From the NCBI GenBank assembly GCA_934646835.1, contig CAKUES010000005.1, forward strand, positions 12,860 through 76,859: a stretch of 64,000 bases of DNA, written 5' to 3'. Under the pieces are notes generated by a model. The model worked only from the letters and a program-made list of their open reading frames with translations. It was not told where the DNA came from and searched no databases. Position numbers and translations under genes: made by a program. How positions within the stretch are numbered: the stretch's first letter is position 1; each line of letters starts with the position of its first letter. Source of the DNA: an uncultured Coriobacteriales bacterium. GTDB taxonomy: Bacteria > Actinomycetota > Coriobacteriia > Coriobacteriales > QAMH01. This document shows, piece after piece, positions 5,275 through 38,232 of this stretch.

Positions 5275-5551
5275 GCGAACTGAGTGGGATCTACCGATTA
5301 CCGTGTCGAACTGGGTGATTTGCGCCTGACTCCTGCGCGAACTGGGTAGTTTTGAGTTTTGTTTTCACGAACTGGGTGGTTTTGGCAGAGCATCTCGATC
5401 TGGGCGAAAACTCGCAAGCCCCTGACCTGCGGCTTTACAGAGCAAGCTCTGAGCTTTCACTCCAAAGGACGAATCAAACCACCCAGTTCGCGAAATTAAC
5501 TTTGCAAACCACCCAGTTCGTCGCAGTTTTCGAGCACAATCGCCCAGTTCC
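5275..5551. repeat. Foldback repeat family G (CGAACTGGGTGGTT motif array)
   Basis: Four direct copies of CGAACTG(G/A)GT.. (5275-5382) face three inverted copies AACCACCCAGTTCG (5477-5551). A related element lies at 35081-35299. Confidence 0.8.
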
Positions 5552-36788: not shown

Positions 36789-36834
36789 TGAGGTCCGGGG
36801 CCCACAGATGCTGACGCGAAGCTCGCAGCGCTGG

Positions 36835-36948
36835 CGGGGAGGGGTCGGCGAAACGCCTCGCGCAACCGTCCCTCGTATAGTTGCGCGGAGCGCAGCGCAC
36901 GAGCCCGCAGGGCGAGCAGCGAAGCGGGCTTTCGCAGACCCCTCCCCG
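36835..36948. repeat. Family H composite palindrome
   Basis: CGGGGAGGGGTC (36835-36846) pairs with GACCCCTCCCCG (36937-36948). The inner GCGCAACC...GTTGCGCG.AGCG.AGCGCACGAGC is shared with 2641-2685. Confidence 0.75.
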
Positions 36949-36990
36949 ACGGCGCGGGCCACAGGTCTCTGCAGGCTCGATGCGACCTAT

Positions 36991-37073: not shown

Positions 37074-37119
37074 GCAAAGCAAAAAGGGCGAGACTTGCGT
37101 CTCGCCCTTTTTGCTTTGC
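37074..37119. terminator. Bidirectional intrinsic terminator
   Basis: GCAAAGCAAAAAGGGCGAGAC-TTGC-GTCTCGCCCTTTTTGCTTTGC. Confidence 0.85.
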
Positions 37120-37154: not shown

Positions 37155-37330
37155 TTGGATCTCTAAGAAGAGAGAAGCCCCAGGCGCCGAAGAGGAGGGG
37201 CGCGCCTGGGGCTAACACCGTTGGTTTCCAAAGAGGAAAGGAAGAAGGAAACCGGTGTTATGAGGTGCCGGGTTGTTGAAGAGGGGACCCGGCGGTCGGG
37301 TTGTTGAAGAGAGGGGACCCGACCAAGTCA
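37155..37330 (-). ncRNA. Candidate structured sRNA with C/U-rich hairpin loops (6C-like architecture)
   Basis: The minus strand reads four consecutive hairpins: GGTCGGGT-CCCCTCTCTTCAACA-ACCCGACC; GCCGGGT-CCCCTCTTCAACA-ACCCGGC; TAACACCGGTTTCC-(CU-rich loop)-GGAAACCAACGGTGTTA; and GCCCCAGGCGC...GCGCCTGGGGC followed by TTCTCTCTTCTT. Structure only; no homology search was run. Confidence 0.4.
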
Positions 37331-37483
37331 GCTGCTTGATTTCTGACACTGAGCACTTTACGCAGAAACCCCCGGTAGAGCATCACACAAAAATGGTGAT
37401 TGCCTATTTACCCATTAACAGGCGAGCTTTTTACACCCTGATAGAGGGTAATTGGGGAGAAAACCGCCCAAAAAGGACGTGCG

Positions 37484-38232
37484 TTAATCAGCGACAGTGA
37501 TTCTGGCATGGTTGAGAAGATACTCAGACGCCACATGGCGCTCTGCAGTCTCTCGCAAAATAAACTTGCGACCCGTCTCCTCAAGAAGTTTGCGAGTCTG
37601 CGCAGAGTCCGCCTTGGGGTTGATCTGTCGCGCCGCCTCGTCAAAATCGCTCTCGTCGACCTTGAGACCCTCGTATACAAACAGCGCATCGAGCACGTAG
37701 CCCTCGACCAACTTTCCATCTCGAGCAGCACTGCGTCCCCGCTCTCGACCGCGCGATCCTGATCAGCAGCGCGCACGTACTCCGTGTTGCGCTTGGCGAT
37801 CTCCTCGATCTGGCGGTCGATGAGCGTCGTGTCCATCTCGAACTTTGGGACAGTGACCTCGACGGGATCATAGGAGGACAGCTCGTAGCGCTGCTTGGGC
37901 TGCACTTCGAGCGTGAAACTCGCTTCCTGGCCGCGGCGCAAAGCGGAGCACTCGGTCACTGCAGGCGGATAGGCCGGCATGAGGCCACTCTTGTCAATCG
38001 CATAGGGAATGAGCGCCTCGAGGGCGGAGTTGCGCACGGCGCTGTAAAGGTCCTTGATGCCAAGCTGTTCCTCGACAGCCTGGTTCACGGTCTTTCCATG
38101 CTCGGGCTTGAGGCCCATGCTGTTCACGAAAGTCAGATACGCAGTCGCGAAGGCGTCTTCGACTTCCTTTACCGTCGCTCGTGCGCTCAACGCGATCTTG
38201 CCCTAATCAAGCTTCTTCTCGGTGAGTTTCAT
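37484..38232 (-). pseudogene. Trigger-factor-like (N- and C-domain, no PPIase) gene inactivated by an in-frame TAG and a 1-nt frameshift
   Basis: The frame reads MKLTEKKLD-TAG(38205-38203)-GKIALSARATVKEVEDAF.... It breaks after ...AVLLEMES near 37712 (GAAAG run) and continues in the -1 frame as LVEGYVLDALFVYEGLKVDESDF (ORF 37484..37711). Confidence 0.75.

Follow-up and report, generated by a model that had tools for sequence, protein, structure and literature searches.

Organization of the locus

The element analysed here lies on the minus strand of a 64-kb stretch of DNA (the window) with a G+C content of ~62%. Reading along this strand, a gene for a flavin reductase of the enoate/2,4-dienoyl-CoA type comes first and is followed by a terminator, a damaged copy of the trigger-factor gene tig, the element itself, a palindromic terminator, a spacer of ~540 nt and a gene for ApbE (Table 1). 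The tig copy is a deletion pseudogene: in comparison with the intact 432-aa gene of L058, the close relative of the window, it has lost 544 nt, which removes residues ~179-357 including the PPIase domain and shifts the frame. The same truncated tig is called in L001 and L002, two contigs near-identical to the window that come from two ENA metagenomes.

Table 1. Coordinates of the RNA element and its surroundings in the window, in minus-strand order.
Feature	Position	Strand	Description
Flavin reductase gene	40498-38546	-	650 aa
tig pseudogene	37484-38232	-	Trigger-factor gene with deletion
Palindrome over the -35 position	37382-37400	-	ATCAC-N9-GTGAT; shared with L058; conserved block
Candidate -10 box	37355-37360	-	TAAAGT; 7 nt before the first conserved base of the RNA
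RNA element	37347-37165	-	~183 nt
P0	37327-37347	-	5'-terminal hairpin GUCAG[AAAUCAAGCAG]CUGAC; 21/21 identical in six of seven homologues
P1a	37294-37324	-	First C-loop hairpin GGUCGGGU[CCCCUCUCUUCAACA]ACCCGACC with loop CCCCUCUCUUCAACA; extra, duplicated copy
P1b	37267-37293	-	Second C-loop hairpin GCCGGGU[CCCCUCUUCAACA]ACCCGGC; corresponds to the one P1 hairpin of the other lineages
P2	37215-37258	-	Bipartite hairpin ACACC-GGUUUCC[UUCUUCCUUUCCUCUUU]GGAAACC-aac-GGUGU
P3	37213-37176	-	GC-rich terminator hairpin AGCCCCAGGCGC[GCCCCUCCUCUUCG]GCGCCUGGGGCU, 12 bp; 37165-37213 including the tail
P3 tail	37176-37165	-	UUCUCUCUUCUU
Back-up terminator	37074-37119		Bidirectional, intrinsic; perfect 21-bp inverted repeat with A-/T-run flanks; 55 nt after P3
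ApbE gene	36535-35630	-	Downstream of the RNA

Hairpin architecture

Direct reading of the minus strand between 37347 and 37165 revealed a row of five hairpins, designated P0, P1a, P1b, P2 and P3, and RNAfold reproduces all of them. The minimum free energy of this segment is -75.5 kcal/mol, against -48.1 +/- 3.7 kcal/mol in dinucleotide shuffles (z = -7.48), and none of 200 shuffled sequences is as stable. The fold, the z-score and the reading of the sequence together confirm the hairpins reported in the original prediction and shift the boundary of the RNA to 37347; the real start lies 17 nt upstream of the one first proposed, and P0 had been missed. Both the pair of adjacent hairpins with nearly the same C-rich loop (P1a and P1b), on which RNAfold agrees, and the closing GC-rich hairpin with its UUCUCUCUUCUU tail are present as described. 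For the hairpin with the CU-rich loop (P2) the loop length of 17 nt was correct, but the stem had been put at 14-17 bp and has in fact 12 bp in two segments of 5 and 7 bp, split by an AAC bulge and closed by the polypyrimidine loop UUCUUCCUUUCCUCUUU. The loop of P3 (L3) is CCCCUCCUCUU across the homologues, and the loop of the window hairpin is written GCCCCUCCUCUUCG. We found no second copy of the C-loop motif at 0-1 mismatch anywhere in the 64-kb window, in agreement with the uniqueness claimed for it, and searching the window with a covariance model of the entire RNA gave no second copy either.

Homologues and their distribution

To search for homologues we used the neighbouring proteins, ApbE and trigger factor, as anchors. 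The conservation in related genomes that had been proposed as a check on the element was found in six other contigs, in all of which the RNA lies directly downstream of tig, and the lineages amount to five in all. The ApbE anchor led to L004 as its sole syntenic locus, and the trigger-factor anchor to L010, L056 (NCBI MAG GCA_963600995.1), L058 and L059; the sixth contig, L022 (GTDB record CAVAPV010000018.1), which carries the RNA together with tig, was recovered by a pattern scan of GTDB species genomes. At the other ApbE-anchored loci (L003, L006 and L007-L009) the gene context is paralogous and the RNA is missing. The RNA is likewise absent after tig in L011, L013 and L014, in which identity to the L004 trigger factor drops to 68%, 63% and 57%; every locus that has it shows at least 79% identity in this protein.

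The neighbours of the RNA across these loci are nanA/nanK/nanE, enoate reductase, tig, ApbE and Mo-oxidoreductase genes. The RNA-bearing lineages with upstream sequence (window, L004, L010 and L056) show the order nanA(DHDPS), ROK kinase, nanE, (enoate reductase), tig, RNA, and the RNA-less L011, L013 and L014 have other genes upstream of tig.

The pattern scan, which required exact matches to the loops of P2 and P3 (L2 and L3), returned 23 loci from 185,579 species genomes, of which 22 are chance matches in unrelated taxa and one, L022, is real. Since this pattern is too strict and would miss loop variants of the L056 and L059 types, the absence of the RNA elsewhere is weak evidence. A scan of JGI metagenomes with a 19-mer of the 5' hairpin gave 18 loci, all chance matches, among them L050, which has the full 21-mer of P0 but in a low-GC coding context. 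The viral contigs that were scanned contain no match to the RNA. When trained on the seven sequences, a covariance model recovers just those seven in the 223 kb searched, the whole window included, and this lone copy per locus indicates a single-copy RNA as opposed to a repeat family, as the original prediction had held. Other GC-rich inverted repeats do lie near it in the window, as would be expected of non-functional hairpins or of a dispersed REP-like repeat, but this explanation is scarcely credible given the lone copy at each locus, that of the window included, the one true match among all the species genomes with none in viral contigs, and the compensatory changes and invariant loops described below.

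As far as could be seen, the RNA is confined to one narrow clade of uncultured gut Coriobacteriia. The nearest named kin of its ApbE and trigger-factor neighbours are from Arabiibacter, Raoultibacter, Adlercreutzia and MAGs of Coriobacteriales/Eggerthellaceae, with only 48-56% identity. The L022 contig (37 kb) is filed as 'Agathobacter rectalis', and its G+C content of 59% (56-61%), its Eggerthellaceae-type tig and the RNA were noted; this contig has almost certainly been mis-binned into a low-GC Lachnospiraceae genome.

Covariation, strand and non-coding character

All seven homologues, each folded alone, adopt the same architecture. In a structure-registered alignment of these seven sequences from five lineages, 236 of the 236 stem cells are canonical, with no disruption, and eight pairs vary, four of them by double compensatory changes and four by a change to a G.U wobble. 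The compensatory changes are U-A<->C-G both at position 2 of P1 (stem G[U/C]CGGG/CCCG[A/G]C) and at position 3 of P2, C-G<->G-C at position 2 of P3 and G-C<->A-U at position 8 of P3. The P2 stem has in addition two U-A>U.G changes, and P3, with 11 conserved bp, combines its two compensatory pairs with two wobbles. Because the four G.U wobbles would become A.C mismatches if the other strand were read, they fix the strand as minus.

The covariation score, calculated on the unrefined CM alignment, was higher than in 500 of 500 shuffles and in all slid registers. A MAFFT-based covariance model (R1) found no additional copies; it mis-registered P1 in three sequences, so that its pair counts understate the pairing, and the structure-registered alignment was used instead. 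At the level of the aligned sequences we regard the covariation as persuasive, in a qualitative sense because it comes from just seven sequences and five lineages.

The linkers between the hairpins drift both in sequence and in length (2-3, 6-9 and 3-4 nt), and the length differences are not multiples of three (2/3 nt in lk1, 6/7/9 nt in lk2 and 15/17/18 nt in the P1 loop L1), so that neither strand can carry a conserved ORF; the substitutions track base-pairing, not codons. The loops L0 (AAAUCAAGCAG), L2 and L3 are nearly invariant among the homologues, the sole exception in L2 being one inserted A in L056 and the sole deviation in P0 a single A>G change in the loop of L058. L1 keeps the core CCCCU...CAAC in all sequences and varies in the rest, reading CCCCUCUUCAACA, CCCCUUCCUCAACA or CCCCCUAGACAAC. 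Between the lineages with a single P1, identity is 82-89% in the RNA, which equals or exceeds the 74-88% at the 3' end of tig, and is far lower in the flanking intergenic DNA. The element is a conserved structured RNA that is predicted to be transcribed from the minus strand.

Lineage-specific duplication of P1

Two P1 hairpins are restricted to the window (with L001 and L002) and L058, and the other four lineages have one, so the twin hairpins that had been put forward as the headline feature of the element are limited to a single pair of close relatives. The stem of P1a is of the type found in L004 (GUCGGG/CCCGAC) and that of P1b of the type found in L010 (GCCGGG/CCCGGC). From these sequences, the most plausible origin of P1a and P1b is a tandem duplication of one module specific to this lineage, and the pair is not a trait that defines the family. 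The RNA is ~150 nt long in most relatives, compared with ~183 nt in the window with its two P1 hairpins, and the duplicated hairpin would provide one extra pairing module in the lineage of the window.

Promoter-like and terminator signals

Upstream of P0, all seven homologues share CGTA(A/G)AGT, set apart from the invariant GTCAG by exactly 7 nt of low conservation. The actinobacterial -10 consensus is of the TANNNT type, and the onset of conservation coincides with the transcript start expected from such a box, which points to a putative promoter. Transcription would begin ~7 nt past the TA(A/G)AGT box, at or beside G37347, and P0 is likely to be the 5' end of the transcript. A scan with the E. 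coli-type sigma-70 promoter pattern gave no match at the 5' side of the RNA, because the -35 region is weak or absent.

In place of the window and L058 version of the palindrome over the -35 position, L010 (~5377-5398), L022, L056 and L059 have TTCATC-N10-GATGAA, and L004 retains just a 5-nt TCATC and a 4-nt GATG on either side of N10. Further upstream we observed a GGGATTAATC-like motif, which in L056 is the perfect palindrome GGGATTAATCCC. Both the palindrome and this motif are possible binding sites of regulators.

At the 3' side, P3 was flagged by the terminator scan, and its GC-rich stem of 11-12 bp together with the U-rich tails identifies it as an intrinsic terminator. The tail is UUUCUUUU in L004, GUUUUCUUUUU in L010 and L022 and UUCUUUUUUU in L059, and it is weaker in the window, L058 and L056. 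The weak-tail loci L058 and L056 also bear a second, canonical terminator, and in the window the strong bidirectional terminator that had been reported just beyond the element is present as a perfect 21-bp palindrome with A- and T-runs at its flanks. The transcript would end at P3 and its U-rich tail, near 37165, and where this tail is weak any read-through would be halted by the strong terminator at 37119-37074. With its conservation in relatives, its compensatory stem changes, a -10-like box of its own and a terminator, the element agrees well with the candidate sRNA of the original prediction.

These signals also bear on whether the RNA serves a neighbouring gene. A role in cis as leader or attenuator of the next gene (ApbE in the window and a molybdopterin oxidoreductase in other lineages) would fit an element that ends in a terminator-like hairpin and that has a gene on the same strand downstream of it in all loci. 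Such a role is very unlikely, as the downstream genes differ by lineage, the distance to the start codon is ~320-830 nt and not conserved, a second strong terminator is present in three loci and the folds show no sign of an alternative antiterminator pairing.

The relation to tig is closer, since the RNA is always found directly downstream of this gene and on the same strand. In L010, L056 and L059 it starts ~140 nt after the tig stop codon with no clear terminator between them, which makes co-transcription with tig possible in these three loci, and the RNA could be a 3'-UTR element made from the tig promoter, with or without processing, that serves the stability or the termination of the tig mRNA. 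We consider this improbable. In L004 a strong terminator stands right after the tig stop and the RNA follows ~350 nt from tig; conservation sets in sharply at the -10-like box and its 7-nt spacing, and the stretch from the tig stop up to that point is poorly conserved. Moreover, despite the deletion in the tig gene of the window, its RNA differs from that of L058, where tig is intact, at 2 of ~185 positions (99% identical). The intact RNA beside the deleted gene and the terminator in L004 argue against a mere 3' UTR of the decayed tig, which had been left open at the outset.

Comparison with known small RNAs

The element had been likened to the 6C family of actinobacterial sRNAs (Rfam RF01066), with B11/ncRv13660c in M. 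tuberculosis, scr3558 in Streptomyces and cgb_03605 in Corynebacterium as members. The family is widespread among Actinobacteria and is defined by two hairpins, each with a run of at least six C in the loop, at a distance of 200-300 nt from chromosome-partitioning or pilus-assembly genes (PMC1950547), and the 6C RNA of M. tuberculosis is ~93 nt long (PMC6486639). The comparison with Rfam that had been suggested, covering 6C and the other families of release 15, gave no family match for the RNA of the window or for any homologue. The 6C model had no match at the gathering score in the 64-kb window, at E<=10 in the segment 36800-37800 or at E<=1 in the six homologous loci, and the sole permissive Rfam matches were chance miRNA-like ones on the palindromic terminator.

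The RNA resembles 6C in its actinobacterial host, its serial hairpins exposing C-rich loops, its covarying stems and its 3' terminator hairpin, and likely also in its action, by analogy with the chaperone-free pairing of 6C loops with G- or purine-rich RBSs (PMC6486639). It differs from 6C in several respects. Its loops are mixed C/U loops, in which the longest C runs are 4 (window, L010 and L022) or 5 (L004, L056 and L059) instead of at least 6, and most lineages have a single P1. It has extra conserved modules, the invariant 5' hairpin P0 and P2 with its 17-nt polypyrimidine loop, and measures ~150-185 nt against ~93 nt in M. tuberculosis. It lies after tig and not beside partitioning or pilus genes, and it has so far been seen in one narrow uncultured clade, in contrast to the occurrence of 6C across Actinobacteria. 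With the host, the C-rich-loop hairpins, the covarying stems and the terminator on one side, and the lack of a model match, the short C runs, the mostly single P1, the tig neighbour and the greater length on the other, a divergent member of RF01066 is highly improbable. Membership in 6C was rejected on the model, the C runs and the location; the covariation of the stems is as in 6C.

The RsaE/RoxS-type sRNAs of Firmicutes expose unpaired UCCC/CCCC motifs as redundant anti-SD seeds and are stand-alone genes with an intrinsic terminator. The RNA described here belongs to another phylum, resembles them neither in sequence nor by covariance model (it has no Rfam match) and differs from them in the number and the arrangement of the hairpins. 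Our best reading is that it is an analogue of 6C and RsaE by design and no member of the 6C family.

The likeness to CsrB/RsmZ is architectural only and consists in a modular row of hairpins with a repeated loop motif, the number of modules varying by lineage; the motif is pyrimidine-rich here, not GGA, and no CsrA-like partner is known or linked to the locus. A sponge of this type, in which the pyrimidine loops (CCCCUC... in P1 and P3, and the loop of P2) bind a protein such as ribosomal S1 or a KH-domain protein, would account for the similar motifs in several apical loops and for a module count that varies by duplication, as is typical of sponge RNAs. It would also explain why loop conservation goes beyond what a short seed requires (17/17 nt in L2). 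We nevertheless judge it unlikely, for there is no candidate partner protein at the locus, where the neighbours are tig, ApbE and oxidoreductases, and to our knowledge no bacterial system of that kind exists for C/U-rich loops. Moreover, 6C, the nearest analogue studied experimentally, works by base-pairing (PMC6486639).

Loop pairing and proposed function

Within the row P0, P1, P2 and P3 (with P1 doubled in the window), stems are kept by compensation and apical loops in sequence. Three or four of the loops are C/U-rich, and the motifs CCUCC, UCCUUUC and CCCCUCU, which occur here in L3, L2 and L1, respectively, resemble the anti-Shine-Dalgarno tail at the 3' end of 16S rRNA. Every MFE fold of the homologues leaves the loops CCCCUCU..., ...UUUCCUCUUU and CCCCUCCUCUU unpaired. 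The RBSs of these genomes are strongly purine-rich, as seen in tig (GAGAGAGAGG), the enoate reductase (GAGGAGAGGAAGGA), the Mo-oxidoreductase (AAGAAGGAGGAAG) and ApbE (GAGUGAGGGAGGGA). In a duplex-energy search with local RBS regions, the loops formed duplexes of -13 to -23 kcal/mol with them, which supports the complementarity to purine-rich RBSs noted originally; this complementarity is generic, since every strong SD is a pairing partner for every polypyrimidine loop. The best non-self complement of L2 in the window is the enoate-reductase RBS GAGGAGAGGAAGGA (40534-40505, -23 kcal/mol). The duplex-energy target search of the window returned ordinary purine-rich RBSs or GGGGAGGGG repeats and no specific conserved target.

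For the C-rich loops of M. tuberculosis 6C, chaperone-free repression of translation by base-pairing has been demonstrated with two targets, the G-rich RBS of panD and dnaB (PMC6486639). By analogy, the best-supported mechanism for the RNA described here would be chaperone-free pairing of its loops in trans with purine-rich RBSs, which would block translation initiation or alter mRNA stability and would need no Hfq-type chaperone, as in mycobacterial 6C. On balance, we lean towards an independent, single-copy sRNA gene on the minus strand after tig whose anti-SD-like loops pair with purine-rich RBSs in trans. It would represent a previously uncatalogued sRNA family with a predicted function and a predicted expression.

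There is an outside chance that the RNA acts more globally, imitating the 16S anti-Shine-Dalgarno tail in multivalent form, with three to four exposed loops of the CCUCC/UCCUUUC type as a sponge for strong SDs or for an S1 or KH pyrimidine-binding protein. If this is true, it would amount to CsrB-like global translational control in an Hfq- and CsrA-less actinobacterium, with its strength tuned by hairpin duplication.

Bearing on gut Coriobacteriia

Eggerthellaceae and other Coriobacteriia are gut bacteria known for the metabolism of drugs and diet compounds by means of extensive flavin and molybdopterin reductase families, and reductases of these families flank the RNA locus. A full-text literature search on the genus Eggerthella returned no report of sRNAs in that genus. 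A conserved sRNA with anti-SD loops, as favoured above, would give a first handle on post-transcriptional control in gut Coriobacteriia and add a further, apparently independent case of the chaperone-free design known from 6C and RsaE, in which C-rich loops face purine-rich RBSs. Its value would be incremental and not conceptual, given a design that is already known, a narrow and uncultured clade and a predicted function, and a specialist would not be surprised.

Other structured elements near the locus

Two further elements were observed around the RNA. A hairpin, AACGCAUGC...GCAUGCGUU, with a U6 run at its 3' side is present in the leader of the enoate-reductase gene (40558-40522, minus strand), immediately before the purine-rich RBS; it is conserved (~3925-3965 in L004) and serves either as an attenuator or to terminate the nanE unit that precedes it. 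In the spacer that separates the back-up terminator from ApbE, GC-rich inverted repeats whose core is CGGGGAGGGG(U/C) occur at 36828-36853 and 36930-36955; they recur beyond ApbE (~35500) and appear to be members of a dispersed repeat family. These repeats are among the best complements of L3 in the window, at about -27 kcal/mol.
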